A stretch of DNA of 64,000 nucleotides from Nannocystis bainbridge (GTDB lineage Bacteria > Myxococcota_A > Polyangia > Nannocystales > Nannocystaceae): positions 288,001 to 352,000 of the forward strand of contig NZ_JAQNDL010000005.1 in the NCBI RefSeq assembly GCF_028368995.1, written 5' to 3'. The translations under genes were made by a program, and so were the position numbers. Every line of letters begins with the position of its first letter. Position 1 is the stretch's first letter. Below the pieces are notes generated by a model, which was given only the letters and a program-made list of their open reading frames with translations, had not been told where the DNA came from and searched no databases. Shown piece by piece: positions 3,034 to 60,300 of this stretch.

Positions 3034-3505
3034 TACATCGGTTATGCCAGCCGCGACCGTTCGTGGGAAGCCGTCGCGAGTGTCTCACACTGTATGTATT
3101 TCGTGCCGGAGAGCGAATGTCTCCACGTGGCGGGTCTGCGCTGAGGGTCGCCTCGATGCGAGCGCAATCGCGGTCGTCTGCGACAGGTCGCAATGTCGTC
3201 ACTCTCACCACGTTCAAGCGGCGGTCCAGAGGCCACAGTCGCTGCTTGCTCACGAGAATCATCAAGAGAGGGTCACGCCGTCCCCGGGCTGCGCCCGAGT
3301 CGAACGAGGGCGTCCCGCTCCTTCAACGAACTGTCATCCATCGAGTACGGGCGGCGTCCCGGGTCCTCGCATGCGCGCCCGGGATCGCCCGTCGCGGGGC
3401 GGTCGTGGGCTCGGCGTCGCCCCCGCTGCCGCTACCTGTCCCCGCGGACATATGTGCATTGTCGTGGGCCAGAACGGCCGCGACGTGCATGCGACCCGTC
3501 GCTCG

Positions 3506-6428: not shown

Positions 6429-6499
6429 CCGTCGCTCGTGCGGCCGCGGGCTCCGAGCTCCCGGTCGACACGCAATTCTGGGGACCGCGCATTCGTCCC

Positions 6500-15949: not shown

Positions 15950-16136
15950 GGACTTGCCCCATCGGGCATGTCCCATGGTGCATGTCTTGGAGAGCATGTC
16001 GCTCCGAACATGCTCTAGAGCGCATGTCCCCGGGGACATGCGCTCTATCCGGCTCCGACCCTTCGACGCCATCGGCCCACACTCGTGCGACAAGCGCCTT
16101 CGAGCATGCCTTTAAAAGCATGCTCTTAGGGGCAGC
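15950..16136. repeat. Two 14-bp-phased arrays of TGTCC-N4-GGACA-type palindromes
   Basis: CWTG cores at 15953, 15967, 15981, 15995, 16009, 16023, 16037. Second run at 16091, 16105, 16119, 16133. Confidence 0.9.
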
Positions 16137-17160: not shown

Positions 17161-17211
17161 CCTCGCGCCTGCGGCCTCGCGCGGCCGGCATCGCGCGCTC
17201 GTGCCGGGGAG

Positions 17212-17291
17212 CGACATGCTTCTCGGGACATGCCTCATCGGGCATGTCCTCATGCGCATGACCACACGGGCATGTCCAAACGGACACCTCG
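17212..17291. repeat. 14-bp-phased palindrome array (6 cores)
   Basis: CATG at 17215, 17229, 17243, 17257, 17271; CACC at 17285. Confidence 0.9.
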
Positions 17292-17447
17292 TGGGCGCGC
17301 GCCCCCGTGTCGCCGCGCACCTGTTGGTCCGCCGGCCCCCAGCACCCGGGCAGCCCCGAGTCCGGGTGCTCGCACGTGCGCGCGTGCGGGGAAACTCTCG
17401 ACCTCGCCCTGCAATTTCTGGCCGCCGATCGGCGACTACGACGGCCC

Positions 17448-18038
17448 ATGAAGCGCTCCACCTTCGCCCGCACAGCACCCTGCCTGACCCTCGTCCTCGC
17501 GCTCGCCTGCCAGCCCGACGCTGCCGACAGCACCACCGACGGCGCCAGCGACTCCACCACGCTCGCCACCACGGGCACCGACACCGACGCCCCGACCACG
17601 ACCGAGACCACCAGCGACGAGGCCCAGCCGGCGCCGTGCGACGGCATCCCGCCCGCGCTAGCGAGCGGCGGCGCCGTCGCCGTCGCGGTGATGGACGCGC
17701 CGGACGAGATCAGCGTCCAGCTCAGCGACGACGCGATCACCTGCGCCGAGAACGAGCCGACCCTGACCTGCAAGGGCGACTGGTTCCTGCGCATCAACCT
17801 CCCGCTGGCGGTGCAGACGCCAGGGAACTACGCGCTGAGCGATCTTTCGACCCTCGCGCTCACGGGCGTCGAGGAGTGCAACAGCTCGACCGGCGGCAAC
17901 CTCAAGGGCACGCTGCAGATCGTCTCCGTCGACGAGGTCGAGGTCACGGCCCGGCTGTGCAACCTCGAGGGCGCGTGGGCCGACGCCAACCCGACCGTCG
18001 CCGCCGACTTCAGCTTCGTCGCCCCGCGCTGCCCGTGA
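17448..18038 (+). CDS. Hypothetical lipoprotein with Thr-rich linker and Cys-containing domain
   Basis: MKRSTF...LALAC lipobox, T/D-rich linker, typical codon usage. Confidence 0.75.
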   Translation: MKRSTFARTAPCLTLVLALACQPDAADSTTDGASDSTTLATTGTDTDAPTTTETTSDEAQPAPCDGIPPALASGGAVAVAVMDAPDEISVQLSDDAITCAENEPTLTCKGDWFLRINLPLAVQTPGNYALSDLSTLALTGVEECNSSTGGNLKGTLQIVSVDEVEVTARLCNLEGAWADANPTVAADFSFVAPRCP

Positions 18039-18100
18039 GCGACGGCGGCGGCGCAGGGCGGCGAGGCGCAGCCCCGGCCGCCCTGATAGGCTGACGCAGC

Positions 18101-18805
18101 ATGCCTCCCCGGACGCTCGTGAAGGCCGACCCGCTCGCCGTCGCGGTGACGCGGGCCATCCAGCGCGGCGAGGTCGCCGAGCTGGGGCGGCTGCTCCGCG
18201 ACCACCCCGACCTGGCCACCGCGCAGATCGTCGACGACGACGGCAGCGCCCGCACGCTCCTGCACGTCGCCACCGACTGGCCCGGGCAGTTCCCGGCCGG
18301 CGTCGCGACCGTCCGGGCCCTCGTCGCCGCGGGCGCCGTGATCGACGCCCCGTTCGTCGGCCCGCACCGCGAGACGCCCCTGCACTGGGCCGCCAGCGCC
18401 GACGACATCGCGGTGCTCGACGCGCTGCTCGACGCCGGCGCCGACATCGAGGCGCCGGGCTCCGTCATCGCCGGCGGCACCGCCCTCGCCGACGCGGTGG
18501 CGTTCGGCCAGTGGCGGGCCGCGCGACGGCTGGTCGAGCGCGGCGCCCGGGCCACGCTGTGGCAAGCCGCCGCGCTGGGCCTGACGGCGCAGCTCGAGGC
18601 GGCGCTGGCCGCCTCACCGCCGCGTGAGGCGATCACGAACGCGCTGTGGTGCGCCTGTCACGGCGGCCAGCGACAGACGGCCGAGCTGCTGCTCGCGCAC
18701 GGCGGCGACCCCGAGTGGGTCGGCCACGACGGCCTGACCCCGGCAGCGGCGGCCCGGCGCAGCGGCGCCCACGAGCTCGCGGCCTGGCTGCAGGCGCGCG
18801 ACTGA
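18101..18805 (+). CDS. Ankyrin repeat protein
   Basis: TLLHVA, ETPLHWAAS, LLDAGADIEA, GLTP. Confidence 0.88.
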   Translation: MPPRTLVKADPLAVAVTRAIQRGEVAELGRLLRDHPDLATAQIVDDDGSARTLLHVATDWPGQFPAGVATVRALVAAGAVIDAPFVGPHRETPLHWAASADDIAVLDALLDAGADIEAPGSVIAGGTALADAVAFGQWRAARRLVERGARATLWQAAALGLTAQLEAALAASPPREAITNALWCACHGGQRQTAELLLAHGGDPEWVGHDGLTPAAAARRSGAHELAAWLQARD

Positions 18806-18807
18806 TC

Positions 18808-18887
18808 GCGCATGCCCTTCAGGACATGTCCGTTCGCGCATGCTCATGAGGACATGCTCCATCGAGCATGTCCCCATGGACATCCCG
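18808..18887. repeat. 14-bp-phased palindrome array (6 cores) filling a convergent intergenic gap
   Basis: CATG at 18811, 18825, 18839, 18853, 18867; CATC at 18881. Lies between stops at 18805 and 18890. Confidence 0.92.
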
Positions 18888-21654: not shown

Positions 21655-22005
21655 CGCCGGCTCAGGCGGCCACGCGCGGCCGAACTTCGCGGCCCGCGGT
21701 GTTGACGCGACCGCACGCGCCCCTCGGCGCCCGCGGCTCGCGGAGTTGACGCGGCCGCCCCCACTGGCTCAGGCGACCTCGCGCGACCGATCCACGCGGT
21801 GTCGACGCGAGCCCACGCGACCCGCGGCTCGCGGAGTGGCCGCCCACGCGGGCTCAGGCGGCCATGCGCGGCCGCGATGTCGAAACAACCGCTCGAGACC
21901 GCGGCTCCCGGAGTGGCCGCCACGCGGGCTCAGGCGGCCACGCGCGGCCGCGGTGTCGACGCGAGCGCACCCGGCCCGCGGCTCGTGGTTGACGCGGCCG
22001 CCCCG
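21655..22005. repeat. Four degenerate tandem GC-rich repeats (about 75-105 bp), REP/BIME-like
   Basis: GGCTCAGGCG at 21659, 21766, 21851, 21927, each followed by CGCG(G/A)TGTYGA and CCGCGGCTC blocks. Confidence 0.8.
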
Positions 22006-22536: not shown

Positions 22537-22602
22537 CCGCATGTCCTCGCGAACATGTCCTCCTGGACATGGACATCGGGACCTGCTCGCTCGAACATGT
22601 CC
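22537..22602. repeat. 14-bp-phased palindrome array (5 cores)
   Basis: Cores at 22540, 22554, 22568, 22582 (CCTG), 22596, in a convergent gap. Confidence 0.9.
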
Positions 22603-24976: not shown

Positions 24977-27097
24977 TCATCGGCCAGGTGATGCCGGCGC
25001 GATGACGACCTCGGCCTTGAGGATGCGGTCGCCGACCACCAGCGCCAGGGCGGCCGGCAGGCCGTCGCGGACCTCGCCGACGTGGGTGTAGCGGCCGTCG
25101 AGGTGCGGGGCGCGGGCGTGCATGATGAAGAATTGACTGCCGCCGGTGTCCTTGCCGGCGTCGGCGATGCCCACGGCGCCGCGCGCGAATGGAGCGGCGC
25201 CTGGCTCCGAGGGCAGGGTGAACCCCGGACCGCCCCAGCCGGTGCCGCCGGGGTCGCCGCCCTGGACGACGTAGCCGGGCACGACGCGATGGAACGTCAG
25301 GCCGTCGTAGAAGCCGCGCTGGGTCAACGCGACGATCGCCGCCACGTGCCACGGCGCGGCCGCGGGCGCGAGCGCCACGTCGACGCGGCCGCGCTCGGTG
25401 TGCAGCCGCCACAGCAGTTCACGGCCGAGCACCGGCGACGGATCGTGCAGCGGCAGCGGGACTTCGCGGCCGGGCCCGTTGACGCCGGGATCTTCGCCGG
25501 CGATCGCCTTCACGCAGGCGCGGGCCGCCGCGCGCACGCTGGCGTTCACGTCGGTGAGCGCGGCGCGACAGACCGGCAGCCCGCGCGCCCCGCCGACCTC
25601 GGCCAGCGCGCCCGCGAGGCCGGCGAACAGCTCGCCGTCGCGTTCGCCCGCGGCCCGCTCGACCAGCGCGTCGACGATCGCCGGCGCCTCCGGCCGCGGC
25701 GCGTCGCCGGCGAAGCGCCCCTGGACCGCCTCGGCCGCGGTGCCCACGACCGCCGGCGAGCTGTCCCGAAGGCCAGCCGCGATCAGGCCGCCGAGTTCGA
25801 GCGCGTCCCACTGCCGACCCGCCGCCGCCAGCGTGGCCGCCCGCACCCGCGGATCGTCGCTGGCCGCCAGCGCCGTCAGTCGGGCCGCCCGCGCCGGCCC
25901 GCCGAAGCCCTGGCCGAGCAGACCTGCCTCGAAGGCCAGCCGCTCGAGGTCCGCCGCCGCCCCGACCGCCTCGGCGCAGCGCAGCGGCGGCCGCCACTCG
26001 CCCGCGCGGGCCGCCAGCGCCGCCAGCCCGCACGCCAGCCGCGCCTGCACCCGCCGCGCCTCCGGCCGCGCCGCCGCCAGCCGGGCCTCGGCGCGCGCGT
26101 GGGCCTCGGCGGCCCCGGGCAGGACGTCCTTGCCGGCTGTCACGATGGACATGGCCTCGAGGACAGGGTGTCCAGAACCTGTCCCATCGAACATGTCCTT
26201 TTGTTCAAGCTCGGCGCGCAGCCAGTCCCACAGCGCCGCGGTCGCGGCCGGCTCGGCCAGCTCGCCGAGACCGCGGACCGCCGCCACCCGCACCCACGGA
26301 TCGGCGTCGCCGAGGCCCGCGCGCAGGGCCGCCAGCGCCTGCGGGGGCCGGTGCCGGGCCAGGCCCTTCAGCGCCAGCGCCCGCACCTCGGGCTCGGCCG
26401 CCGCGGCCGCACGCACCAGCGCCGCCGCGCCCGGGTCGATCGCCGCCTCGCGCACCGGCGCTGCTACCTCTGCGTCGGGCTTCGCCGCGGGCGCGTGGGC
26501 CAGCCCGTAGACCGCCGCGTAGACCCGCCGCGGATCGCCCTCGCCCGCCATCGCCACCAGCCCGGCGCGGGCCGCCTCATCGAGCGGCAGCCCGCGCCGA
26601 CCGAGGATCCCCAGCACGATCGCCGCCGCCTCGCGCACCGCCGGCGCCTCCTCGGGTCGCAGCGCCGCGGCCAGGCGCGCGCTCGCGGCCCCGCTGCCGA
26701 GCCGCCGCATCGCCAGCACGATCGCCAATCGCTCGTCCGCCCCCGCCGCCGGCCACCGCTGCCACACGGCGTCCTCGAACCGCGCCACCTCGGACCCGAG
26801 CGCCCCGGCGACGTCGAGCGCGCGCATGGCCGCCGCCCGCGTGGCCGCGTCGGGGCTCGCCAGCAGCGCGTCGAGCCGCGTCAGCGCGACCGCGTCGCCG
26901 ATCCGCCCGAGCCCCTCGATCGCCGCCGGGTTCGCCTCCGTGGCCAGCCGCGCCAGCTCGGCCGAGCCGCCCTCGCGCCGCGCCTCGAGGCGAGCGAGCG
27001 CGAGGCCCGGATCGTCGCCGCCGTCCGGCGGTCCCGACGGCCGCGCGCACCCGGCCACCAGCGCGATCGACAGCAGGAAGGAGCGCGGAGCCAGCAT
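24977..27097 (-). CDS. HEAT-repeat lipoprotein with C-terminal cyclophilin peptidyl-prolyl isomerase
   Basis: Lipobox VAGC, HEAT repeats (D.WVR.AA), FYDGLTFHRVVPGYVVQGGDP, DTGGSQFFI, HLDGRYT. Confidence 0.9.
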   Translation of the reverse strand: MLAPRSFLLSIALVAGCARPSGPPDGGDDPGLALARLEARREGGSAELARLATEANPAAIEGLGRIGDAVALTRLDALLASPDAATRAAAMRALDVAGALGSEVARFEDAVWQRWPAAGADERLAIVLAMRRLGSGAASARLAAALRPEEAPAVREAAAIVLGILGRRGLPLDEAARAGLVAMAGEGDPRRVYAAVYGLAHAPAAKPDAEVAAPVREAAIDPGAAALVRAAAAAEPEVRALALKGLARHRPPQALAALRAGLGDADPWVRVAAVRGLGELAEPAATAALWDWLRAELEQKDMFDGTGSGHPVLEAMSIVTAGKDVLPGAAEAHARAEARLAAARPEARRVQARLACGLAALAARAGEWRPPLRCAEAVGAAADLERLAFEAGLLGQGFGGPARAARLTALAASDDPRVRAATLAAAGRQWDALELGGLIAAGLRDSSPAVVGTAAEAVQGRFAGDAPRPEAPAIVDALVERAAGERDGELFAGLAGALAEVGGARGLPVCRAALTDVNASVRAAARACVKAIAGEDPGVNGPGREVPLPLHDPSPVLGRELLWRLHTERGRVDVALAPAAAPWHVAAIVALTQRGFYDGLTFHRVVPGYVVQGGDPGGTGWGGPGFTLPSEPGAAPFARGAVGIADAGKDTGGSQFFIMHARAPHLDGRYTHVGEVRDGLPAALALVVGDRILKAEVVIAPASPGR
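26136..26209. repeat. 14-bp-phased palindrome array inside a CDS
   Basis: Cores at 26136, 26150, 26164, 26178, 26192 (weak 26206) within the PPIase gene, with a local run of A/T-ending codons. Confidence 0.8.
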
Positions 27098-27779: not shown

Positions 27780-27814
27780 TGACATGTCCTTGAGGACATG
27801 TCCCTCGCGCCAGG
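27780..27814. repeat. 14-bp-phased palindrome array (3 cores)
   Basis: GACATGTCCTTGAGGACATGTCC, cores at 27783, 27797, 27811. Confidence 0.85.
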
Positions 27815-29668: not shown

Positions 29669-29748
29669 GGGCATGTCCTGCAGGACATGCCCTCTCGGAC
29701 ATGCGTGAAGGGACATGCCCGACCGGGCATGTCCCTTTCGTCATGCGC
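29669..29748. repeat. 14-bp-phased palindrome array (6 cores)
   Basis: CATG at 29672, 29686, 29700, 29714, 29728, 29742, starting just after the oxidase stop. Confidence 0.92.
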
Positions 29749-33212: not shown

Positions 33213-34910
33213 CTATCGAGGGTCCGCGACCGCGCGGAACAGCGGGCTGGCGACGAGGTCGACGAGCAGGCTCTGGACGCGGTGGCCGCTGGCGACGAAC
33301 CTGTCCTCGAGGACATCCAGCGCGGGCAGCTCGCCGAAGGTCTCGAGGTGGCCGAGGCCGCCGCGCACGAAGTTCTTGATCACGCAGGCCGCAGCCCGCC
33401 GATCGTCGACCAGCAGGGCCGCCAGCTCGCGCGCGCCGGCGAACCGGCCGAGGTCGTCGGTGCTGGCTTCGACGTCGATGGCGAGCCCCTGATCCTCGGT
33501 GCGGAAGCGGCCGAGGGCGTCGTAGTGCTCGAGGGTGAGGCCGAGCGGGTCCATGCCGCGGTGACAGCTGGCGCAGCTCTGGTCGGTCAGGTGCCGCTGC
33601 AGCCGCTGCTTCATGGTCTCCGGCTTATTTGGGTCGGCGGCCGGCAAGTGAGTGTCGACGCCGGGCGGCGGCGGCAAGATGATGTCGCACAGCAGGCGGG
33701 TGCGAATGAACTGACCGCGGCGGGTCGGCGAGGTCAGGCCAGGGTGGGCGAAGCGAGCCAGGAAGCTGGCGTGGCCGAGCAAGCCGGCGCGGCCCTGCGC
33801 CGCCGGCGAGGCGACGCGGTGAAAGCCCGGCCCGTCGGGCGCCGGCAGCCCGTAGAGCCCGGCCAGCGCGGCGTCGACGAAGGTGGTGTCGCTGTCGAAG
33901 AACCGGCGGATGTCGCCGTCCTCCTGCCATACGATCGCGTCGAGCAGATGCAGGGTCTCCTGCGCCATCGACCCGGCCAGCGCGGGCGAGAACTCCGGGA
34001 ACAGGTCGGCGCTCTTGGCCAGGGTCGGCAGGTCGCGCAGCAGCAGCAGCTCGCTGTAAAATTTGGTGAGGGTGGTCCGCGCCTCCGGTTGCTTCAGCAT
34101 CGCCGCGGCCGCGGCCCGCACCTGGGCCTCGGTCTCGAGCTCGCCGGCCTCGGCGGCGGCCAGCAAGGCGGCGTCCGGGGTGCGTCCGAGCAAGAAGAAC
34201 GACATGCGCGCGGCCAGCTCGAGCCCCGTGAGCCGCCGCCGCGCCGGGGCGTCGGAGTCGGGCTCGCCGAGCTCGAACAAATAGATGAAGTGCGGCGATT
34301 GCAGCAGCGCCATCAATTCGTATTCGAGGCCGACAGCGAACGAATCACCCCAGGCGCGGCCGTCCTCGGCGATCTGCACGAGCGCCGCGACCTCGCCGTC
34401 AGTCAGCGGCCGCCGCCAGGCCAGGCGCCCGAAATCGGCCGCCACGGCGGCGTAACAGGGCGAATCGGCGGTGGCATCATGGACGCACGGGACGAAGCTG
34501 GCGAGCCGCTCGCGATCGGCGACGGCGGCCAGAGCGACCGCTCGCGCGGAGGCCTCGCATTGTTCGATGGCGCTCGCCTGTAGCGCCAGCTCCGCCGCGC
34601 CGATGGCGTCGAACCCGTGCAGCGGATAATCCTCGGGGGGCGCAGCCGCGGCCGCCGCCTCGTCGCCGAGCAAGTAGCGGATCGAGCCGACGTATTGATG
34701 GCGCAGGAGGCGTCGCAGGCCGCCAGGGACCGGCGCGAACGAGTCCTCGTCGCCGCCGCCGGTGGTGCCGTCGATGGGCAGGTCGGTGCTCGCGTCGTCC
34801 GCGTCGCCCGGGCCCCTGCCCTCATTCGCCGGACATGCGAACAAGGTGAGACACGATGCGACAGCGATCGTCATCTCTCTTAAAAAATGATGGGTGAGCG
34901 ACCGCGACAT
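33213..34910 (-). CDS. DUF1592/DUF1588/DUF1595 (PSD/PSCyt) cytochrome-like protein
   Basis: LRRL...QY, AWRRPL, LLQSPHFIY, TSPTRRG, CASCH, DPLG..LEHYDA.G.FR. Start may be 34874. Confidence 0.88.
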   Translation of the reverse strand: MSRSLTHHFLREMTIAVASCLTLFACPANEGRGPGDADDASTDLPIDGTTGGGDEDSFAPVPGGLRRLLRHQYVGSIRYLLGDEAAAAAAPPEDYPLHGFDAIGAAELALQASAIEQCEASARAVALAAVADRERLASFVPCVHDATADSPCYAAVAADFGRLAWRRPLTDGEVAALVQIAEDGRAWGDSFAVGLEYELMALLQSPHFIYLFELGEPDSDAPARRRLTGLELAARMSFFLLGRTPDAALLAAAEAGELETEAQVRAAAAAMLKQPEARTTLTKFYSELLLLRDLPTLAKSADLFPEFSPALAGSMAQETLHLLDAIVWQEDGDIRRFFDSDTTFVDAALAGLYGLPAPDGPGFHRVASPAAQGRAGLLGHASFLARFAHPGLTSPTRRGQFIRTRLLCDIILPPPPGVDTHLPAADPNKPETMKQRLQRHLTDQSCASCHRGMDPLGLTLEHYDALGRFRTEDQGLAIDVEASTDDLGRFAGARELAALLVDDRRAAACVIKNFVRGGLGHLETFGELPALDVLEDRFVASGHRVQSLLVDLVASPLFRAVADPR

Positions 34911-37194: not shown

Positions 37195-37288
37195 CGACCT
37201 GCGCGGCTCATTATGTCCGAATGAGCATGTCCGATCGGGCATGCCCCCTCGAACATGCCCTCTTGCGCATGCCCTTCAGGACATGCCC
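37195..37288. repeat. 14-bp-phased palindrome array (7 cores)
   Basis: Cores at 37198, 37212, 37226, 37240, 37254, 37268, 37282. The last overlaps the ankyrin gene 3' end. Confidence 0.92.
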
Positions 37289-38481
37289 GGAGCGCCAGCC
37301 AGCAGCGCCGCCACCTCGTCTTGCCCGTTGAACTCGGCCCACTCGCGCGGCGTCGCCCCGTAGATCGCCTCGCGGGCGTCGACCGCGGCGCCGTGGTCGA
37401 CCAGCGCGCGCACCACCTCCGCGTGGCCGTGGCCGGCGGCCACGTGCAGGGGCGTCGGCAGGCCGGGGCCGGCGAGGCCGTCGACCGCGGCGCCGGCGGC
37501 CAGCAATGCGAGGACCGCGGCCGTGTGGCCCTCGCGCGCCGCCAGGTGCAGGGCCGTCACCTCGGCGGGCGTCTCGGCGAGCAGCCGGCGCGTACGCGCG
37601 TCGATCTCGACGCCGGCGCGCACCAGCACCTCGACCACCTCGGGTCGGCCGTTCTTGGCCGCCAGCGCCAACCACGAGGCCAGCAGCGCCGGCGGCTGCG
37701 GCCCGGCCTGCAGGCGCGCGGCCATCGTCGCCAGGTCGCCGGTGACCAGCGCCGTCGCCACGTCGTCGCCCGCCCCGAGCCCGCGCAGCAGCGCGATCTG
37801 GGCCGCGTCGCCGCGCGCCATCGCCAGCGCCAGCGGCGTGAGGCCGTCGTCGGTGGCCGCGTGCAGCTCGGCCCCGAGCTCGACCAGCAGCGTCAGCGAG
37901 TTCTTGAGCCCGCGCGCGACCGCCAGGTGCAGCGCCGTCATGCCCGCCGACACGAAGCCCATGCGCTGATGCACCGCGCCGGGGTCGGCCGCCACGGCCG
38001 CCCGGATCGCGTCGAGCCCGGACGGCAGCGCGGTGAAGATGTCTTCGCGGGCGCCGGCGGCCCGCAGCAGCCGCGCCACCGCTGGCCGATCCTGATGGCC
38101 CTGCGGCGCCCAGCGGACCACGACGGACCAGCCCAGCGGCGTGAGCGCGAACCACCCGTCGCGCGTCTCGAGCGCGGCGCCGTGGGCCAGCAGCAGCTCG
38201 GCGACCGCGGGCACTCCCATCTCGGCCGCCCAGTGCAGCGCCGTGGTGTCGCTGGCCGCCTCGCGCGCGTGCACGTCGGCGCCGGCCTGCAGCAGCGCGG
38301 CGACCACCGGCTGCTGCCCGCGGTGGGCGGCGAAGATCAGCGGCGTGCTGCCCAGCGACGGATCGCGGGCCCCCGCCAGCGCCGGCTCGGCCTGCACCTG
38401 GGCGACCGCGGCCGCGAGATCGCCGCGCTGGATGGCGTCGAACAGCGCGGACCCGGGAGACGGCTGGGGCGGGGCACTCAT
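37276..38481 (-). CDS. Ankyrin repeat protein
   Basis: Repeated TPL/TALH.AA..G....V..LL..GA. Confidence 0.92.
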   Translation of the reverse strand: MSAPPQPSPGSALFDAIQRGDLAAAVAQVQAEPALAGARDPSLGSTPLIFAAHRGQQPVVAALLQAGADVHAREAASDTTALHWAAEMGVPAVAELLLAHGAALETRDGWFALTPLGWSVVVRWAPQGHQDRPAVARLLRAAGAREDIFTALPSGLDAIRAAVAADPGAVHQRMGFVSAGMTALHLAVARGLKNSLTLLVELGAELHAATDDGLTPLALAMARGDAAQIALLRGLGAGDDVATALVTGDLATMAARLQAGPQPPALLASWLALAAKNGRPEVVEVLVRAGVEIDARTRRLLAETPAEVTALHLAAREGHTAAVLALLAAGAAVDGLAGPGLPTPLHVAAGHGHAEVVRALVDHGAAVDAREAIYGATPREWAEFNGQDEVAALLAGAPGMS

Positions 38482-39565: not shown

Positions 39566-41218
<1,653 letters not shown>

Positions 41219-41444
41219 CGGGCCCGCAACGTAGCACAAGCGTCCGCGAGCCGGCTCGCGTCGAAGTCCGAACCGGAGGGCGCCTGTCACGGCCGAAACG
41301 CGCCCTGTACCCGGGTGTTCCCCGGCGACCCCGGCCCGGTGTCCTCCGGTCCGCGGGAGTTGGAAGCGCACCGCGCGCAAGCGCCCGCGCACGCACACAC
41401 GCCGAAGATCGCCTGGCGCAGCCGAGCCCGGGGGCGCGCATGAA

Positions 41445-41723
41445 CCTGTCCTTCAGGACATCCGCGCCGGCGGCTGCCTCGACAGCCGGTCCCGAGAGAC
41501 AGGACCGGCGCGCCGCGGCGGACCGTCACCTGTCCCGTGGGACATCTTCTTCGTCGCGTGCCGCGAGCGCCGCCCGGCGATCGCGTCGCGGCCACCTGTC
41601 CCACGGCACATACGGCCGTCGCCATTACACTCGAGCCGTGTCCTCGAGGCCACCAAGCGAACGGGCCCGGATCTACCGGGCCCATCCGCCGCATCAGGCT
41701 CGTCACCTGTCCCGGAGGACAGC
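41445..41723. repeat. Cluster of six separated single TGTCC-N4-GGACA-type sites
   Basis: Core pairs at 41445/59, 41486/500, 41529/43, 41595/609, 41637/51, 41706/20. Confidence 0.75.
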
Positions 41724-41734
41724 CGATTTGCCCG

Positions 41735-42544
41735 TCACATGCAGCCCGGCACCCAGTCGGGGGGGCTGCAATCCTCGAAGCCCTGGAGAATGCAGCCGGA
41801 CGGCGCGTCCCAGGCCTTGTCGGGCTCGCCCACCTTGCAGACGACCGGGATGAACGGCGGGCACGCGCCGCCGTTGGCGATGCAGCCCAGGAAATCCTGG
41901 TTCCCGTAATCGGCGCACAGATCGCCGTCGACCTCGACGTGGGGCGCGCCGTAGATCGCCCGGCACTCGGAGGGCTCGTCCAGGCACTCGGCCTCGTCCA
42001 GCGACTCGCACGTATCGCAGTACACCAGCGCCGGCGCCTCGCAGGCCGTGAATCCGGCTGGCGCGCAGCCGGTGTCGACGAGGTCGTAGATCGCGTCGGT
42101 GCCGTCCTCGCAGAAGATCGTGCTGTTGTGCTCGCACTCCTGGGGCTCCGAGCAGCCGAGGAAGACCAGGCCCTCGCTGCAGCCGGGGAACTCGAGCGCC
42201 TTGCCGTGGTACGCCTGGCATCCGTAGGCCTCGCAGTCGGCCTCGCCGAGCTCGACGCACTCGGGCGGGATCGCCATGCCGGTGGTCGAAGTCTCGACCA
42301 GAGTCGTCTCCGACGGGTCGAACATCGTCGTCGCGGTCTGCCAGGGCTCTTCCGGCGCGTCGGTCGTCCCGCCGGTGGTGCCCACGCTGGACTCGCCGTC
42401 AGTGGCCGTCGGGTCGCCCGTGGTGCCGGACGAACCACTGTCGGTCGCCGAGAGGTTGCCGAGCTTGGTCGGCAGCTCGCACGCGGCCAGCGCGAGCGTG
42501 ATCGTGATCGTAAGGATGCGGGGGACGTAAGCGAAGTTGTTCAT
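41735..42544 (-). CDS. Cys-rich lipoprotein with internal repeat
   Basis: LAAC lipobox, Thr-rich linker, two C..L.E..C....C....G...FLGC repeats. Confidence 0.8.
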   Translation of the reverse strand: MNNFAYVPRILTITITLALAACELPTKLGNLSATDSGSSGTTGDPTATDGESSVGTTGGTTDAPEEPWQTATTMFDPSETTLVETSTTGMAIPPECVELGEADCEAYGCQAYHGKALEFPGCSEGLVFLGCSEPQECEHNSTIFCEDGTDAIYDLVDTGCAPAGFTACEAPALVYCDTCESLDEAECLDEPSECRAIYGAPHVEVDGDLCADYGNQDFLGCIANGGACPPFIPVVCKVGEPDKAWDAPSGCILQGFEDCSPPDWVPGCM

Positions 42545-42586: not shown

Positions 42587-43816
42587 TCACTGCCCGCAGC
42601 GATTAAAATGGCCGAACCGCTGGGCCACCGCCGACGCCGGGAATGTGCGCACCAGCGATTGCGCCGCCGACAGCGCCGCGGGCTCGTCGCCGAGTCGGCA
42701 CAGCGCCTCGATGCGCGCCGCCTCGCGCACGTCCGCCAGCGCCCCGCCGGGGAACCGCTGCGCGTGCTCGGCCACCCCGGCCAGCGCCGCTGCCGGATCG
42801 CCGGCCGCCAGCTGCGCCTGCACGCGATCGATCGCCGCCACCTCCGCGGCCAGCCGCGCCCCCGCGTCGCTCGCCTCGGGCTTCGGCGCCTCCGCCTCGC
42901 TCGTCGCCCGCGGGCTCGCGGCGCTCTGGGAGGATGTCCCTTTGGACATGTCCTTCGGGACCTGCACCGGGATCACCGCCGGCGCGGCGATCGGCGCCGG
43001 CGTCGGCGCGGCCGCGAGGACCGGGCCCGGCTGCTTCGCCGCCACGACCGGCGCGCTGGCCACGGACGGGCGCTCGGCCGCGCGGGCCGGCGCGCGCGCG
43101 ACCACCAGCCCGATGGTCGCCGCTCCGGCCACGATCATCGTCGTCGCCGCCGCCGTCTGCGAAGTCACCCACGCCGCCAGCCCGACCTTCGCCGCGCTCT
43201 TGCCGAACATCGGCAGCATCAGGCCCCACGTGCGCGACTCGGCCTCGCGCGGCGGCGCCTGGCGCTGGCGGGAGGCGTCGCGCAGCGAATCGAGGCGACC
43301 GCCGATCACCAGCGCCTGCAGCTGCTGCCGCGCCAGTCGCAGCCGCGAATACACCGTATTGACCGGCAGCCCCAGCTCCGACGCGATCTCCGGCGCGCTC
43401 ATCCCCAGCAGCTCCGTCATCTCCCACACCGTGCGGTTGCCGTCGGCCAGCTCGCCGAGCACGCGCGTCAGCAGCTGGGCGTCGTCGTGGCGCTGCTGCG
43501 GCGCCGCGGCCTGCGGGCGGGCCAGCTCGGCGAACGCCGCGTGGCGCCGGGCCAGGCGCGCGGCCCCGCGGCGGTGGCGGAACGCGACCCGGCGGGTCAC
43601 CCCGAACAGCCAGGCCCGCGGCGACACCTCGAAATGCAGCTCCTCGAGCCGGCGGTACGCGGTCAAGAACACCTCCTGGACCACGTCGTCGACCGTGCCG
43701 CCCGGCACGCCGAAGTGCTGGGCCGCCGACCACACGAACGCGAATTCGGCGCGATACAGCGCCTGAAAGCGTCGCAGGTGGGGTTCGTCCTCGTGAGCGG
43801 TTTCGCGCGGGGTCAT
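42587..43816 (-). CDS. ECF sigma factor fused to a TM segment and C-terminal TPR-like domain
   Basis: F..LY...F.FVW, DDVVQEVF, WLFGV.RR, EIA.ELG.P.NTVYSRLR.AR, then TM, Pro/Ala linker and LAAE...H...FP.G.L..RE...I.ALC. Confidence 0.85.
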   Translation of the reverse strand: MTPRETAHEDEPHLRRFQALYRAEFAFVWSAAQHFGVPGGTVDDVVQEVFLTAYRRLEELHFEVSPRAWLFGVTRRVAFRHRRGAARLARRHAAFAELARPQAAAPQQRHDDAQLLTRVLGELADGNRTVWEMTELLGMSAPEIASELGLPVNTVYSRLRLARQQLQALVIGGRLDSLRDASRQRQAPPREAESRTWGLMLPMFGKSAAKVGLAAWVTSQTAAATTMIVAGAATIGLVVARAPARAAERPSVASAPVVAAKQPGPVLAAAPTPAPIAAPAVIPVQVPKDMSKGTSSQSAASPRATSEAEAPKPEASDAGARLAAEVAAIDRVQAQLAAGDPAAALAGVAEHAQRFPGGALADVREAARIEALCRLGDEPAALSAAQSLVRTFPASAVAQRFGHFNRCGQ

Positions 43817-46413: not shown

Positions 46414-46428
46414 GGCGGGCGCAAATGC

Positions 46429-46480
46429 ATGCATGTCCCATTCGACATGTTTATAAAAACATGTCCTTACGGCCATGCAT
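46429..46480. repeat. 14-bp-phased palindrome array (4 cores)
   Basis: CATG at 46432, 46446, 46460, 46474; one unit reads TGTTT-ATAA-AAACA. Confidence 0.88.
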
Positions 46481-47122: not shown

Positions 47123-48724
47123 TCACGGCGTGCAAGCGGCCGGGCCGACCCTGACGTCGTCGACGTTCCAGCTGCCGACCAGATACACCAGAGTGCTGCC
47201 GACGTTGAAGCACCAGCGCGCGCGGAAGTCGGCGTTCTTGTGCGGCGTGACGTTGTACGAGAAGAACTTCCACTCGGTGTCGTAGGTCCCGGTCGCGAGC
47301 GTCTCCCAGAGGACCACCCAGTTGGTGCCGTTGTACACCGACAGCGTGTTCTTCATGTACGGCGTATAATCGCTGTTGATGTAGCGCCAGTACGACAGGT
47401 GGACGTCGGCCGGCGCCGCGGACAGATCGATCGTCGGGCTCTCGAGGCAGTAGTAGTCGTGGATGGTGGAGTTGGGGATGCAGCCGCCGAGGACGACACC
47501 GGCGACGCCGTTGTCGTCGGTCGGGGTGTGGTCCAGCGCGGGGTCCTGGCCGTTCTGGCAGCCGACCGACGCGGCCGCGGGGCCGATCGCCCACTGCGTA
47601 CCGAGCGTCCAGCCGGCGCCGTTGTCCGAGAAGTCCTCGTTGAAGAGATCCTCGAGCGACGGGCCGCACACGCCGGCGTCGCACACCTCGAGGTTGGTGC
47701 AGGAGTTGCCGTCGTCGCACGCGGTGCCGTCCTGGACCTCCTGGGCGAAGCAGCCACTCACCGGGTCGCAGGCGCCGGTATGACAGGCGCCGGCCTCGCC
47801 GCTGCAATCGAGCGGAGTGCCGCCGCCGCAGCTACCGGCGTTGCAAGTGCTGCCCTCGAAGCAGACGGTGCCGTCCTCGCACGCCTGGCCGTCGTTGACC
47901 GGCTCGGCGACGCAGGTGAAGCCCGGCATCTGACACGCGCCCTCGGTGCAATCGCCGTCGAGCATGTCGCAGTCGGCGTCGCTCAGGCACAGCGGCGCGG
48001 TGCACAGGCCGAGCGTGCAGATCGCCGACAGGCAGTCGCTGTCCTCGAGGCACAGCCCCTCGCCGAGGCAGCCGTTGCAGGTCGCCCCGCCGCAGTCGAC
48101 GTCCGTCTCGTCCTGGTTGAGCACGCCGTCGCCGCAGGTCGCCTGGGCGCACGCGCCGTCGGTGCACACGCCGCTGGCACAGTCGCTGGCCTCGGCGCAC
48201 GCGAGCGCGTCGCCGCAGGCCGGGCAGGTCGCGCCGCCGCAGTCGACGTCCGTCTCGTCGGCGTTCTTGACCAGGTCCTCGCAGCTCGGCGCCGCACACA
48301 CGCCGCCGACGCAGCTGCCGATCTCACAGTCGCCGTCCTGCGTGCACTGGAGGCCGTCGGCGCACGGCGAGCAGGAGCCGCCGCAGTCGACGTCGGTCTC
48401 GTCCTGGTTGAGCGTGCCGTCGTCGCACGAGGCCGCGGGCTCGGTGGTGACCTCGGTGGTGCTCGGGTGCAGCGTCGAGTCCGAGGAGGCCGTCTCGTCG
48501 GCGGTGGTGCTCGTCGAGGTCGTCGGCGTCCCCGTCGTCGTCGTCGTCGAAGTCGGCGGCTCGTTTGTGGTGACCGGCGTCCCAGTCGTCCCCGGTTCGC
48601 CGGTGCTGGTGTCGGTGGTACTGGCGGATACTTGCCCGTCCGTGGTCGTCGTGCCGGCGTCTCCGCAGCCAGCGAGCGCGAGGGCGCCGACGAAGAGCGA
48701 TACTTGGGTCCGTGGGGTGGTCAT
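47123..48724 (-). CDS. Cys-rich surface lipoprotein with ETDVDCGG repeats and a C-terminal beta-sandwich
   Basis: LAGC lipobox, Thr tract, three N.DETDVDCGG repeats, CDDGN.CT, LESPTIDLS...WNVDDV. Confidence 0.85.
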   Translation of the reverse strand: MTTPRTQVSLFVGALALAGCGDAGTTTTDGQVSASTTDTSTGEPGTTGTPVTTNEPPTSTTTTTGTPTTSTSTTADETASSDSTLHPSTTEVTTEPAASCDDGTLNQDETDVDCGGSCSPCADGLQCTQDGDCEIGSCVGGVCAAPSCEDLVKNADETDVDCGGATCPACGDALACAEASDCASGVCTDGACAQATCGDGVLNQDETDVDCGGATCNGCLGEGLCLEDSDCLSAICTLGLCTAPLCLSDADCDMLDGDCTEGACQMPGFTCVAEPVNDGQACEDGTVCFEGSTCNAGSCGGGTPLDCSGEAGACHTGACDPVSGCFAQEVQDGTACDDGNSCTNLEVCDAGVCGPSLEDLFNEDFSDNGAGWTLGTQWAIGPAAASVGCQNGQDPALDHTPTDDNGVAGVVLGGCIPNSTIHDYYCLESPTIDLSAAPADVHLSYWRYINSDYTPYMKNTLSVYNGTNWVVLWETLATGTYDTEWKFFSYNVTPHKNADFRARWCFNVGSTLVYLVGSWNVDDVRVGPAACTP

Positions 48725-54604: not shown

Positions 54605-54686
54605 CCGCGAGCACCGGCCGATCCTCCGTCGTGCTCGCCACGGCCTCGCTGCCGCGGCCGCCGAATGCACCCTGACCGCCCCGGGC

Positions 54687-55709
54687 TCAGGGGCAGCTCG
54701 CGGGCGATTCGACGTACAGCTGGCCCAGCTCCGTCAGTTGCCCCGACCCGGCGAGCAGGTCGATCGTCGGCGCCGGGTCGAAGCGGCCGCTGAACCACGA
54801 GTAGCGGGCCACCGCCGGCTCGGCCTCGAGGTATTCGAGCGCCTCCTGCATGTATTGCAGCTGCACCGCGACCGACTTGTCCTCCGCGTCGAGGCAGGAG
54901 AACTCGGTCAGCCAGATCGGCCGCTCGTAGCGCTTCATCTCGCCGATGTACCATTCGAGCGCGGGGCGGTCGCAGGCGTACCAGTGGACCGCGAGGTGGT
55001 CGACGCGGCAATCGGGGCAGGCGGCGAAGAACTCGTCGAACCACTCGAACGGGTCGGTCTTGTTGCAATCGCCGCCGCAGTAGTTGACCGCCGGCGACAC
55101 GATCTCGAGCCCGTGCGCGTCGGCGACCGCCTCGACCTGCGGCCACAGCGCGGCCGCCTCCTGCGGCGTCAGGTTGGCCTGGGCGCCGAAATTGGGCTCG
55201 TTGAACGCCAGCAGGTAGCGCGCCCCGGCCGGGATCGGCGGGTCCTGATCGAGCGAGGCCCCGCCCCACAGCATCGGCACGAACTCGACGTCGAGCGAAA
55301 CGTAATCGCCGACCTCCTGATCGGGCGGGACCGTCCAGTTGTACCACCACGACACCCCGGGCGCGAGCGCGGCCATGTCCGCGTGCGAATGATAGCCGTA
55401 CGCGATCCCCCGCTTGCAGCCCGAGCGATCGACGCCGCCCGAATCATCCGTGCTGCTGCCCTCGCTGGTCGGCCCGTCGCCGCTGGTCGGCCCGTCGCCG
55501 CTCGTCGGCCCGTCGCCGCTCGTCGGCCCGTCGCCGCTCGTCGGTCCGGTGGACGGCCCCCCGCTGCCCGTCGGCGTCGTCGTCTCGCCCCCGCTCGTCG
55601 GGCCCGCGGTCGTCGACCCGGCCTCGCTCGAGTTTCCGCCGTCGTCACCACAGCCGGCCGCCAGCGCCAGCATCAGCCACCATTGTCCGCGCATCATCAT
55701 ACCTCGCAT
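54687..55709 (-). CDS. GH128 (Glyco_hydro_cc) beta-1,3-glucanase lipoprotein
   Basis: AAGC lipobox, GPTSGD repeats, KRG, SWWYNW, FVPMLWG, LLAFNEP, AVHWY, PIWLTEF, RYSWF. Confidence 0.88.
   Translation of the reverse strand: MRGMMMRGQWWLMLALAAGCGDDGGNSSEAGSTTAGPTSGGETTTPTGSGGPSTGPTSGDGPTSGDGPTSGDGPTSGDGPTSEGSSTDDSGGVDRSGCKRGIAYGYHSHADMAALAPGVSWWYNWTVPPDQEVGDYVSLDVEFVPMLWGGASLDQDPPIPAGARYLLAFNEPNFGAQANLTPQEAAALWPQVEAVADAHGLEIVSPAVNYCGGDCNKTDPFEWFDEFFAACPDCRVDHLAVHWYACDRPALEWYIGEMKRYERPIWLTEFSCLDAEDKSVAVQLQYMQEALEYLEAEPAVARYSWFSGRFDPAPTIDLLAGSGQLTELGQLYVESPASCP
55464..55545. repeat. 18-bp coding tandem repeat (GPTSGD) in the GH128 linker
   Basis: (CTSGTCGGCCCGTCGCCG)n, about 4.5 copies. Confidence 0.85.
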
Positions 55710-55714
55710 CTTTC

Positions 55715-57329: not shown

Positions 57330-60300
57330 TCAACGCGGCTCGCTGGCCGCGAGCAGGCCCTCGGGCGTGGCCGGCAGCCGCACCGCGCCGATGGGCGCGC
57401 CGATCACGATCGCGTCCTCGCTGTCGGCGGTGAACGCCAGCTCCACCGGCGTCCCGCCGTGCAGCCGCGCGATCGTCCCGGCGAACGCGCCGTCGTGCGC
57501 CGACCACAGGCCGACCTCGCCGCGCTGATCGGCGATCAGAATCTTCGAGCCGTCAGGCGAGAACACCGCCGATCGCCGCACCCAGTTGCGCCGCCCCTCG
57601 AGCTGCACGCTCGGCGAGAGGTCGTCGGCCCGCCACAGCCGCGCCGCGCCGCTGTCGTCGAGCCCGAGGATCGCGCTGTCGTCCGGCGAGTACTTCGCCG
57701 ATACGATCCGCGCCGCATTGCCGCGCAGCTCGGCCAGCACCTCGCCGGTGCGCGCGTCCCAGACCTTCGCGTCGCCGCGGCTCCCGTGGGCGAACATCTG
57801 CGCGCCGTCGTGAGCCCCCGCGATGCCCGAGAGCTCGCTGCGGAGCCCGTCGAACTGCACGCTCGCGCGCGTCCACGGATCGAGCAGCTCGAACCGCGTG
57901 GTCCACCCGGGGATCACGAGCTGCCCGATCGCCGTGCCCTCGATGCGGCCGTAGGGCAGGTTCGGCCGCCGCAGCGTGTGCAGGCCGCGGCAATCCGCCG
58001 TCGACCACAGGTGCAATGCGCTCTCCGTGTCGACGGTCACCACCGCCTCGGCGTGCGGCAGGAACACCGGCCGCTGCCACATCTCGAGCGTGGTCGGCAG
58101 CGCGCAGCGCAGCGCACCCGTGTCGGCGTCCCACAGCTCGGCGGCGCCGGCGGGCGAGGCCGCGAGCAGCGTGCCGGCGCCCGACAGCACCAGCTTCGCC
58201 ACGTCGTTGGTCGCCTCCGCCGCGAGCAGGGCCCCGTCGGTCACGCGATGCACCGTCACCACCCCGTCGCCGGCCATCGCCAGGCGGTCGCCGGCGACAT
58301 CGATGTCCATCGCCACCGGCGCCCGGGCCACGCGCCAGCGCGCCGGCACGGCCAGCGGCAGCTCCCACACCAGCGTCGGCCCGGCCGCCGTGCCCGCGAG
58401 CAGCTGGCCGCCGTCCGGCGAAAACTGCAGCGACATCACGTCGTCGTACGCGGCCCGCAGCGTCGCCCGCAGCGCCCCGGTCGCGACCTCCCACACCCGC
58501 ACCGTGCCGTCGCCGGCCCCGAGCGCCAGCCACCGCTCGTCGGGTGACAGCGCCGCGGCCCCGTAGTGCGCGACCTCGCCGTCGACGCGCCGGATCATCC
58601 GCCCGTCCTCGGGCGCCCACGCGAACCACGCCCCGTCCATGATGACCGAGATCAGCGTCTCGCCGTCGCCGGTGAACAGCAGCTGCTGCGGCGAGAACGT
58701 CGGCCCGACCGCGCGCTTGACCAGCTTCGGCGCCGCGCCGCCCACGTCCCACATGTAAATGTCCATGTCGTTGCCGGCGACCGCGACGCGCTCGCCGTCG
58801 CCCGAGATCGCCAGCGCCGTGTACATGCGCGCCGACGTCGGCAGGTCGCCCAGCTTGCGGCCGTCGGGCAACGACCACAACCACGCGTAACCGTTGTCGC
58901 CGGTGACGATCCGCGAATTGTCGCGCGAGAACGCGGCCGCGTGGGCCCTCTGCGGCAGCGCGGCGATCAGCGCCCCGGTGCTCGCGTCGCGCACGCGCAG
59001 CTCGCCCTCGGCCAGCGCGGCGATCCGGGTCCGATCGGGCGACATCGCGATCAATTGCTGCTCGTCGCCGAGCCGCGCCGTGATCGCCCCGCTGCGCACG
59101 TCGCGGCGCACCAGCCCGTCCTCGCCGGCGGTGACCAGCGCCCCGTCGGCCGCGACGTCGGCCCCGGCCACCCCCTCCAGCTCGACCAGCCGCTGCCCGC
59201 TGCCCGCGTCCCACAGCCGCAGCGTCCTGCCCTCGACCAGCGTCAGCACGACCTCGCCGCCCGCCGCCCAGCGCGCGTGGTTGACGTAGCGCCCGTCGAC
59301 CGCGCCGTACTGCATCACCACCCGCGGCGCCATCAGCGTCGCCGCCAGCGCCCGGCTGGCCGCCGCGATCGGGCCGCCGGTGCGCAGCGCCTCGCCCGCG
59401 GCCGCCCGCGCGATCGCCCGCGCGGCGTCCGTTCGATCTGTCTCTTCGGACATGTCCTGCGCGCGCAGGATCGACGCCTGCAGCCGCTGGGCGTCGACCA
59501 CCGCCTGGCGCTCGAACGCGCTGCGCTCCGCCTTGTCGGCCTGGGCCGCCGCCTCGCGCTCGGCCTGCTCGGTCTGCGCCCGCGCCTCGGCCCGCGTGCG
59601 CGCCTGCTCGTAGCCCAGCCAGGCCAGCGCCACCCCGCCCGCGAGCGCCAGCCGCAGCCCCGCCACCGCCACCCGGTGCGAGCGGGCCCACAGGCGGGCC
59701 CGCTCGCGCAGCGAGTACGCGTGGGCCGCCACCATCTGCCCGGCCTGGAACCGCCGCAGCTCCTCGGCGAACGCGGCCGCGTCCGGGTAGCGATCGGTCG
59801 GCGCGCGGGCCATGGCCCGGTGGGCGATGGTCGCCAGCTCGCCCGGGATCGCCGGATCGACGCCCCGCAGATCGCTCGGGTGGCCGGCCAGCACCTGCGC
59901 CGCCAGCCCCGTCCCCGTCACCGCCGCGAACGGCGGCTGCCCGGCCAGCACGTGATACAGGATCGCCCCCAGCGCGTACACGTCGGAGCGCACATCGACC
60001 ACCTCGCCGGCCGCCTGCTCCGGCGGCATGTAGCGCAGCGTCCCCAGCACCGTGCCCGCCTGCGTCATGTCCGAAGTGCCATGGTCCAAAGGACCTGCTC
60101 CATCGGACATCTCATTTTCGACCGCCGTCAGGTCCTTGGCCAGGCCCCAGTCGATCACCACCGTCTCGCCGAAGCGACCGACCAGCACGTTGGCCGGCTT
60201 GAGGTCGCGGTGCAGCACCTTCTGCGCGTGCGCGTAGGCGATCGCGTCGGCCACCGCGATCACGTGCTCGACCAGCCGCAGCCGCTGCGGCAGCGTCGTC

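Follow-up and report, generated by a model that had tools for sequence, protein, structure and literature searches.

The 64,000-nucleotide stretch of the Nannocystis bainbridge genome analysed here (contig NZ_JAQNDL010000005.1, positions 288,001 to 352,000, or G000:C5:288001-352000; in the following, the window) carries a split palindrome, TGTCC-N4-GGACA, whose units abut one another in a strict 14-bp register and form arrays directly behind stop codons. The element recurs throughout the genome (G000; 11.05 Mb, 5 contigs, 71.5% GC) and is specific to one genus, probably Nannocystis, plus two sister genera. Tentatively, and at somewhat less than an even chance, it is proposed that a dimeric protein with a LuxR/NarL-class helix-turn-helix (HTH) reads the 14-mer on duplex DNA, and that the arrays are orientation-independent boundaries at gene ends.

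In the window, the exact pattern TGTCCNNNNGGACA (TGTCC-N4-GGACA) is present at 16 sites, against 0.03 expected from 100 dinucleotide shuffles, and allowing up to two mismatches raises the number to 75 matches (25.2 expected; shuffle maximum 38). The whole genome holds 1987 exact copies, against 3 of a reversed control pattern. The palindrome had been picked out in an earlier note made from the letters alone, and this observation is confirmed, all 16 exact window sites lying at, or 2-16 bp from, the positions given there. The same note had foreseen that CATG, the word read where two units meet, would recur at 14, 28 and 42 bp. CATG pairs in the window number 30 at a distance of 14 bp, 21 at 28, 16 at 42 and 9 at 56, with none at 13 or 15 bp; the corresponding genome counts are 3736, 2073, 1586 and 751, over a background of about 70-130 at nearby distances other than multiples of 3 (about 80 for the 14-bp pairs), and 13 or 15 bp are not in excess. 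As a control, seven further 4-base palindromes were run, and none peaked at 14 bp. Taking an array as a chain of CATG at 14-bp steps, the genome has 2074 arrays: 1120 with 2 CATG, 347 with 3, 276 with 4, 210 with 5, 91 with 6, 24 with 7 and 6 beyond that (up to 16). The phase was said never to slip and is indeed strict; a few arrays have an additional out-of-phase CATG inside a unit, at 15974 and 17251, and keep the 14-bp register. Tandem Repeats Finder reports the 14-bp period weakly and with low scores, and overlooks an array at 29672 because its units are strongly diverged.

The unit is symmetric throughout, with CATG followed by Y-C-C, a centre rich in A and T, and G-G-R. At the outer edges of arrays the arm TGNCC is kept without CA before it, and therefore the repeating entity is TGTCC-N4-GGACA, CATG being the junction of two units. 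Around the site, C occupies the preceding position at a frequency of 0.43 and G the following one at 0.39, and about half of the sites have A/T flanks in place of C/G, giving CATG. The N4 centre is itself symmetric (Y-Y-R-R). Isolated sites are flanked by ACC...GGT and read ACCTGTCC-N4-GGACAGGT.

Genes were called with a custom codon-usage caller, which returned 7060 genes covering 74-76% of the DNA and missed others, so that the gap-class counts omit uncalled genes and the distances to genes are upper bounds. Arrays of at least 3 CATG, examined over five classes of gap length, are found in 104 of 333, 175 of 353, 76 of 167, 28 of 78 and 13 of 48 gaps between converging genes (31%, 50%, 46%, 36% and 27%), in 3-17% of same-direction gaps depending on the class, and in 12 of the 993 divergent gaps (0-3.6% by class); these 12 gave no lead to an autoregulated gene. 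In same-direction gaps the median distance is 10.5 bp from the upstream stop to the beginning of the array and 165 bp from its end to the next start; in 190 of 230 cases the array is closer to the stop than to the start. In convergent gaps the medians to the two stops are 8 and 13 bp, and a median of 57% of the gap is filled. Considering all gene ends followed by at least 40 bp, phased CATG lie within 160 nt of 1539 out of 5714. Among isolated sites, 7 of 409 lie within 20 bp of a gene 5' end and 113 of 613 within that distance of a 3' end. The element had been described as scattered regardless of gene boundaries; for the arrays, which follow stops, mostly of converging genes, and are nearly absent from divergent gaps, this description is wrong, and it survives in part for the single sites inside genes. 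The longest arrays (8-16 CATG) follow ordinary genes. The longest of all, with about 20 units and unusually rich in A and T, occupies G000:C3:1237915-1238181 and starts some 17 bp downstream of the stop codon of a small uncalled gene.

Part of this placement would also be expected under an explanation that is considered unlikely, namely that the element is a self-propagating palindromic repeat without host function, a cousin of the repetitive extragenic palindromes and bacterial interspersed mosaic elements (REP/BIME), copied outward by hairpin template switching or by an enzyme, expanding as far as the next coding sequence or promoter and surviving only in the promoter-free space behind stops. 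The filling of convergent gaps up to both stops agrees with it, and the depletion in divergent gaps would follow if insertions there were harmful. Against it stand the phase, which is free of indels although the spacers are saturated with substitutions, and further evidence from pairing, coding sequence and distribution given below.

The same position, directly past stops and most often between converging genes, is also that of an intrinsic terminator, and suggests a second alternative: that the units act as RNA or single-stranded DNA hairpins, serving as bidirectional terminators or as stabilisers of mRNA 3' ends in a high-GC genome. Eight array strands fold at z-scores of -2.8 to -6.2 relative to shuffles; they fold well because any string of palindromes must. 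Moreover, perfect stems of at least 10 bp are present in 17% of arrays with at least 4 CATG, against 8-9% after permutation. Nearly all of these stems belong to the terminal units (21, 2 and 18 along the arrays of 4 CATG; 17, 2, 3 and 19 along those of 5), which are better palindromes and nearer to the consensus than the internal ones, a feature that also accords with a self-propagating repeat. At 142 of the 180 gene ends that have both an array and a hairpin-plus-T tract, the tract lies inside or overlaps the array, usually in an AT-rich spacer (as located with a crude finder), and in the two sister genera, where sites are mostly single, several stand 1-6 nt after a stop codon and are sometimes followed by T-rich stretches. 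However, the paired positions do not covary. Watson-Crick pairs across the spacer occur at frequencies of 0.444, 0.595 and 0.572, against 0.418, 0.569 and 0.574 expected from independent positions, and permuting the partner arms lowers the total from 9.75 to about 9.5 pairs of 17. Fewer than 3 consecutive pairs adjoin the loop in 358 of 607 arrays. No strand bias of N4 relative to transcription is seen at 421 sites in same-direction gaps, where CGAA occurs 22 times and TTCG 19 times, and T-rich centres number 161 and A-rich ones 154; UUCG is thus not preferred to CGAA. Hairpins, furthermore, need no strict 14-bp register and do not account for some 650 conserved sites spread evenly within genes. 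The tRNA genes end in ordinary hairpin-plus-T terminators, and the element comes after only about 6 of the 102, several times behind the terminator; arrays and canonical terminators are not mutually exclusive, and Rfam gave no match in the window. The pairing-kept, GC-rich hairpin with a U tract that defines an intrinsic terminator is therefore not what is found, and a hairpin function is judged quite improbable.

Neither do the arrays look like slippage-generated minisatellites, in which adjacent units should be the more alike. Out of 10 positions, an average of 5.50 differ between neighbouring units and 5.78 between units paired at random; only 5.9% of neighbours differ at 2 positions or fewer, and no mirror complementarity is present in the arrays. 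The suggestion that the units are not recent slippage copies is thereby borne out, the register being strict. The absence of covariation and of N4 asymmetry, together with the scant likeness of adjacent units, argues for recognition of the site as duplex DNA and against both RNA hairpins and slippage repeats; base pairing as such is not what is conserved in the element. The element behaves as a symmetric double-stranded site for a dimer, as the earlier note had supposed. The half-sites hold the consensus independently of each other, which template switching in a self-propagating repeat would not give.

From the perspective of coding sequence, 631-653 of the 1987 exact sites fall within called genes and are evenly spread along them. 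The 653 in-gene sites compare with 13-26 in synonymous shuffles and 4-8 in codon-order shuffles, an excess of 30-100 times over the shuffled counts. The three reading frames are used 361, 212 and 58 times, in the order of how few rare codons each requires. At third codon positions, identity to relatives is 90.5% (181/200) in the arms, 80.5% (805/1000) in the flanks and 64% (32/50) in N4. A tolerated parasite does not predict that about a third of the exact sites should lie in coding sequence, with upkeep at the codon level and conserved arms.

In-gene abundance recalls the cyanobacterial HIP1 and the uptake signals DUS and USS (DNA uptake sequence and uptake signal sequence), lineage-specific contiguous 8-12-mers that are over-represented in and between genes, the uptake signals being asymmetric. 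Like them, the element is lineage-specific, hugely over-represented in and between genes, and accommodated at the codon level; unlike them, it is a phased split palindrome, and theirs are contiguous words without phased arrays. A genome-wide signature kept by molecular drive and not by local function, either an uptake or self signal of the DUS/USS kind or a highly iterated, HIP1-like palindrome tied to a methylase or a repair bias, would let sites build up at any tolerated place and would explain the thousands of copies in and between genes, a frame use that tracks codon tolerance, the excess of at least 30-fold over synonymous shuffles, the even spread over all contigs and the graded abundance across related genera described below; DUS and USS, too, cluster behind genes. 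Exact 14-bp abutment is not predicted by such a drive, the known uptake signals are asymmetric contiguous words and not split palindromes, and the element is kept at given gene ends more strongly than would be expected of a diffuse drive. Overall, this explanation is held to be very improbable.

On each of the five contigs, every 200-kb bin of any appreciable length contains sites, with no restriction to the replication origin or terminus. The likeness to regional organising systems of the Noc, SlmA, MatP or ParB kind, drawn in the earlier note, does not hold up: the corresponding sites (NBS, SBS, matS and parS) number in the tens, are confined to an origin or terminus macrodomain and have a cognate protein, and here the parS cluster is separate and a single ParB_N match was found. 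Five canonical parS-like sites lie at the end of C1 (G000:C1:4343336-4343723), beside a switch of GC skew in what is probably the origin region; the sole ParB_N match is on another contig, at C3:1147646. An additional ParB-type factor was sought for the element, and no extra ParB was found.

Conservation was followed in four relatives of the same genus (G001, G005, G007 and G010), which are kin, so that the counts are not independent. Where a gene end bears the element in G000, a relative has one there too in 15 of 24 comparisons, against 6 of 75 for ends without it. Four phased CATG occur in all 10 same-genus genomes, 409-527 times in five genomes of 12-13 Mb and 1-13 times in fragmented ones, and in none of 8 other genera of the family and none of 12 other families. 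None of 150 further genomes of the class, a sample without any other member of the same genus, had the exact two-unit pattern. Seven phased CATG, searched over all species, gave mostly single, unrelated matches per genome among the matches listed, and a three-unit array was not found in viral contigs. Single-site copies number 1550-2090 in four near-complete genomes of the genus (g1) and 333-563 in three fragmented ones, 87-169 in one sister genus (g2) and 67-696 in the other (g4), one genome of which has short arrays. A further genus, g28, has 5-20 copies against 2-7 of the control, and the remaining 13 genera have 0-11.

These comparisons bear on the self-propagating repeat from both sides. 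The number and sequence of units turn over between species at one and the same gene end, and copy number varies tenfold within g4, as such a repeat might be expected to do; on the other hand, elements persist at the same gene ends across species. REP/BIME units are species-specific palindromes present in hundreds of copies and clustered at gene 3' ends, especially convergent ones, and the element shares with those of enterobacteria and pseudomonads the clustering at 3' ends and between converging genes. It differs in that REP units are 20-40 bp long and alternate with linkers, whereas the units here are 14 bp long, abut directly and keep a fixed register. Extragenic 20-40 bp stem-loops with compensatory change were not found: the stems do not covary, and a third of the sites lie in coding sequence. 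Nor was a cognate REP-associated tyrosine transposase (RAYT): the Y1 transposase domain PF01797 is absent from 20 genomes, comprising G000, 7 others of g1, 5 of g2 and 7 of g4; it occurs in 15 further genomes of the family, and 6 of the 14 controls have it too.

The earlier note saw no cognate protein within the window, and this agrees with the present result, in which the candidate lies elsewhere. Matches to a GerE-type HTH number 11 in the genome; they fall in five response regulators, a sigma factor and four further proteins, of which one has two GerE domains. Distribution across 61 genomes of the family was checked for three of these four further proteins. The candidate binder is a 151-aa LuxR-type protein encoded on the minus strand at G000:C3:1036257-1036709. 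Full-length orthologues (E <=1e-38, 51-97% identity) were found in 6 of 7 genomes of g1, 5 of 5 of g2 and 7 of 7 of g4. Among the other 14 genera there are HTH-only matches in three, near-full-length matches at 34-37% identity in two (g8 and g24), and none at the cut-off in nine. The three genera with orthologues are thus the three enriched for the motif. Beyond the family, 1 of 300 other genomes of the phylum gave a match at E <=1e-18 (43% identity), and 140 relatives at E <=1e-5 were found among 5.8 billion proteins, the named ones belonging to Nannocystis, Nannocystaceae or metagenome-assembled genomes of Myxococcales. The HTH is near-invariant over 29 homologues and the same in all orthologues examined from g1, g2 and g4, and the recognition helix differs in three distant homologues from genomes with only 1-3 copies of the motif.

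The family profile of the candidate matches NarL, StyR, DesR, EL222 and DosR. In its predicted structure (mean predicted local distance difference test, pLDDT, 79.7) a four-helix HTH comes after a small N-terminal domain of the alpha/beta type, and the top Foldseek ranks for this model go to EL222, VqmA, CviR and NarL. A prediction of the homodimer scored 0.26 (mark 0.42) and was weighed neither way. The candidate gene lies tail to tail with an operon for type IIA topoisomerase A and B subunits (G000:C3:1031624-1036019) and has a long gene for an extracytoplasmic function (ECF) sigma factor on its other side; this layout is found in 6 of 12 loci from g1, g2 and g4, and a kinase-AAA gene also recurs in the neighbourhood. 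The adjacency of candidate and topoisomerase is taken as ordinary synteny until shown otherwise.

Other factors were considered and set aside. The tandem-GerE protein L179 is present in only 2 of 7 other g1 genomes and the FHA-GerE protein L175 is widespread in the family, and neither distribution fits. The autoinducer-binding LuxR domain is absent from g1, g2 and g4 with the exception of one weak match in G000. The junction of two units, RRRCATGYYY, equals the half-site of p53, and a P53 domain was therefore looked for and not found; no mTERF domain was found either.

In the proposed mechanism, dimers of the LuxR-class protein would recognise TGTCC-N4-GGACA on double-stranded DNA, and single sites would be retained by selection or by a sequence-specific drive, both in genes and just past stops. 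In the genus of G000, post-stop sites may have grown into head-to-tail arrays of 3-7 units, whose abutment would allow dimers to sit side by side at 14-bp intervals where transcription units end, in either orientation. The arrays could then mark or insulate gene ends, as a roadblock that keeps transcription from running on into the converging gene, or as a platform on which a topology factor lands, and the single sites in genes would be weaker members of the same system. Growth might proceed at the array ends by inverted copying of the neighbouring unit with preservation of the 14-bp register, an idea based on the terminal stems and on quasi-palindrome template switching; such copying would explain both the register and the terminal palindromes. 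The data establish the anatomy, placement and conservation of the element and its phyletic match with the candidate, whereas binding, the identity of the reader, the function and the way of growth are inferred. A bolder version, regarded as unlikely, is that a small LuxR-type protein of a few genera coats phased arrays of its own operator at about a quarter of gene 3' ends as a sequence-programmed, orientation-independent roadblock or insulator, and might recruit the type IIA topoisomerase, encoded beside it in 6 of 12 loci, to the supercoils of converging transcription.

Several points weigh against the proposed LuxR-class boundary system. The arrays avoid promoters, whereas LuxR-type operators normally sit in them, and the candidate gene has no motif site upstream of it. 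To serve about 2000 sites in addition to arrays, a regulator would need the abundance of a nucleoid protein. Hairpin-plus-T structures occur at 242 of the 1539 array-bearing gene ends (15.7%), against 9.8% of ends without an array; canonical terminators are thus present and co-occur with arrays, so that a termination role for the arrays is not required. The better terminal palindromes and the filling of the space between stops fit a tolerated self-expanding repeat equally well. Finally, the phyletic match of motif and candidate may rest on one evolutionary event, since the three genera may be kin. As to the last point, the neighbouring topoisomerase subunit is 75-78% identical to that of G000 in g2, 76-81% in g4 and 67-77% in other genera of the family; g2 and g4 are thus not clearly closer to G000, and the match is not obviously a trivial mark of a tight clade, one protein being a crude yardstick.

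Among systems already described, ribbon-helix-helix operators provide a precedent for arrays: the met boxes of MetJ and the heptads of omega are head-to-tail arrays of 2-7 degenerate symmetric units, each bound by one dimer, with cooperativity. The element resembles them in its short, degenerate, symmetric units kept head to tail in strict register, and differs in that their units are 7-8 bp long, in promoters and of small regulons, while here 14-bp units are found in thousands, at gene ends. LuxR-type operators, too, are palindromes split by a free 4-bp centre, with CC/GG on the inside and CTG/CAG on the outside, and the candidate has an HTH of the LuxR/NarL type; with its common flanks the element also has the form of the 16-20 bp dyad CTG-N10-CAG of lux boxes. 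Lux boxes are few to tens per genome and lie in promoters, unlike the element, which is present in about 2000 copies, mostly behind stops or in genes, and in abutting arrays, and whose arrays and isolated sites are both scarce at promoters, as the divergent gaps and 5' ends show. The claim that no known consensus matches cannot be upheld, since a site with the common C/G flanks, CTGTCC-N4-GGACAG, fits the ideal 16-bp operator of the LuxR-type receptor CviR, CTGNCCNNNNGGNCAG, as given in an excerpt of the source (PMC12114271). The TAACTGA heptamer arrays of Beggiatoaceae, according to the portion of the report available (PMC4679880), are intergenic 7-bp direct repeats; they too are abundant, lineage-specific, phased short tandem units of unknown function, and differ from the present arrays, which are palindromic, of 14 bp and downstream of genes. 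The excerpt of a further article (PMC3372372) contains only general remarks on repeat numbers. A description of the element was not found in the open full-text literature, a coverage outside which lie subscription journals, including the first papers on myxobacterial genomes. The core word GGACATGTCC occurs, among the matches listed, in texts on p53 or otherwise unrelated to bacterial repeats.

The window encodes, among other proteins, Ser/Thr kinases, ECF sigma factors and PAS histidine kinases, and is collinear with the four same-genus genomes, most aligned blocks being 81-90% identical and three weaker ones 67-80%. The 26 loci originally listed proved to be of several kinds. Arrays of 4-7 CATG were recovered at 15953, 17215, 18811, 22540, 29672, 37198 and 46432, and pairs of units at 16091, 27783 and 42933; the loci at 5642, 6611, 6764, 24018, 38539 and 44387 turned out to be single degenerate sites, and the group at 41445-41706 is made up of five separate sites and is not a phased array.

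Between converging genes, the array at 15955..16050 has 6 phased CATG (15967 to 16037) plus the out-of-phase CATG at 15974; it starts about 12 bp past the stop of a histidine-kinase gene (15943), and its distal end is a long perfect palindrome. This gene end bears an array in all five genomes (G000, G001, G005, G007 and G010), and some units are recognisably orthologous and in register. Opposite it, at 16093..16132, stand two units, with CATG at 16105 and 16119 and a spacer rich in A and T; they follow the stop codon (16137) of the converging minus-strand gene at a distance of 5-15 bp. The array at 18811..18882, with 5 phased CATG, fills the 85-bp gap between converging stops at 18805 and 18890, and that at 22540..22600 (CATG at 22540, 22554, 22568 and 22596) lies in a convergent gap 37 bp past the stop at 22503. 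At 37212..37290, again in a convergent gap, 5 phased CATG (37226 to 37282) overlap the last codons of a minus-strand ankyrin gene (stop 37276); arrays are present at this gene end in all five genomes, with unrelated units.

A same-direction gap holds the array at 17215..17286 (CATG at 17215, 17229, 17243, 17257 and 17271, with the extra one at 17251), 55 bp past the stop of a DUF1579 gene (17160). The array at 29672..29746, of 6 phased CATG, starts 10 bp past the stop of an amine oxidase gene (29662), an end that carries arrays in 4 of 4 relatives, and the one at 46428..46478, of 4 phased CATG, starts 15 bp past the stop at 46413 and has one spacer made up wholly of A/T. Two units at 27783..27812, about 10 bp beyond the stop of a DUF4404 gene (27819), are kept in 4 of 4 relatives, and an exact single site at 3437..3450 follows a minus-strand gene, 56 bp past its stop (3506). 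Between two same-direction genes, 41447..41721 contains five separate single sites of the type ACCTGTCC-N4-GGACAGG, 40-85 bp apart, in a layout that is the same in relatives; the counterpart of window positions 41430-41740 in G001 is a tandem repeat of about 75 bp in about nine copies, with one site in each.

Within coding sequence, the exact single site at 33302..33315 has its arms kept in 4 relatives and a variable N4, and that at 39979..39992, in the linker of a Ser/Thr kinase gene, is conserved despite indels in its flanks. Two abutting units in a sigma-factor-like gene (42935..42962) use rare codons and are conserved amid diverged flanks, and four degenerate units in a HEAT/cyclophilin gene (26138..26207) are partly conserved in relatives. 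In a WD40 Ser/Thr kinase gene, three to four degenerate units at 60066-60110 fall in the part for the kinase domain; a paralogue encoded by a different genome is 15 bases shorter there, and the units may be a tolerated in-frame insertion.

Two points of the window vary among the five genomes. The genes at 17448-18038 and 18119-18805 (ankyrin) are absent or replaced in the four relatives (window 17161-18885), and the variable segment with these two genes is flanked by the 17215 and 18811 arrays; at the 22540 array, relatives carry 1.6-5.8 kb extra. Tandem repeats unrelated to the element were noted at 21795-21984 (76 bp x 2.5), 48077-48411 (147 bp x 2.3) and 55463-55548 (18 bp x 4.8, 97% identity, within a glycosyl hydrolase gene). 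Outside the window, about 28 tRNA genes are packed into 2.6 kb of comparatively AT-rich DNA at G000:C2:2556665-2559240, and a second run of 7 lies at C2:2356727-2357431; both may be tRNA arrays derived from mobile elements or phages.

REP, HIP1 and the uptake signals have been only partly explained after decades, and the present element offers a clean and testable case: one short symmetric word in a strict 14-bp register, with conserved copies in genes, about 950 arrays of at least 3 CATG directly behind stop codons, and a sharp phyletic boundary common to a single candidate binder. From a practical perspective, the arrays break short-read assemblies of the genus (1-13 four-CATG arrays in fragmented genomes, against 409-869 in near-complete ones) and would confound predictors of terminators and repeats. 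If the candidate does not bind, what is left is a palindromic repeat that grows in exact register without a RAYT, which would bear on the origin of REP-like DNA. If it does bind, it would make the action of a sequence-specific factor at gene ends tractable on the scale of a genome, and would provide a natural experiment on an operator invading a whole genome. The ends of bacterial genes are thought to be marked by RNA hairpins or by Rho; should the arrays prove to be boundaries, Nannocystis and its sister genera would possess a means of terminating or insulating transcription units for which no model organism offers a known parallel.

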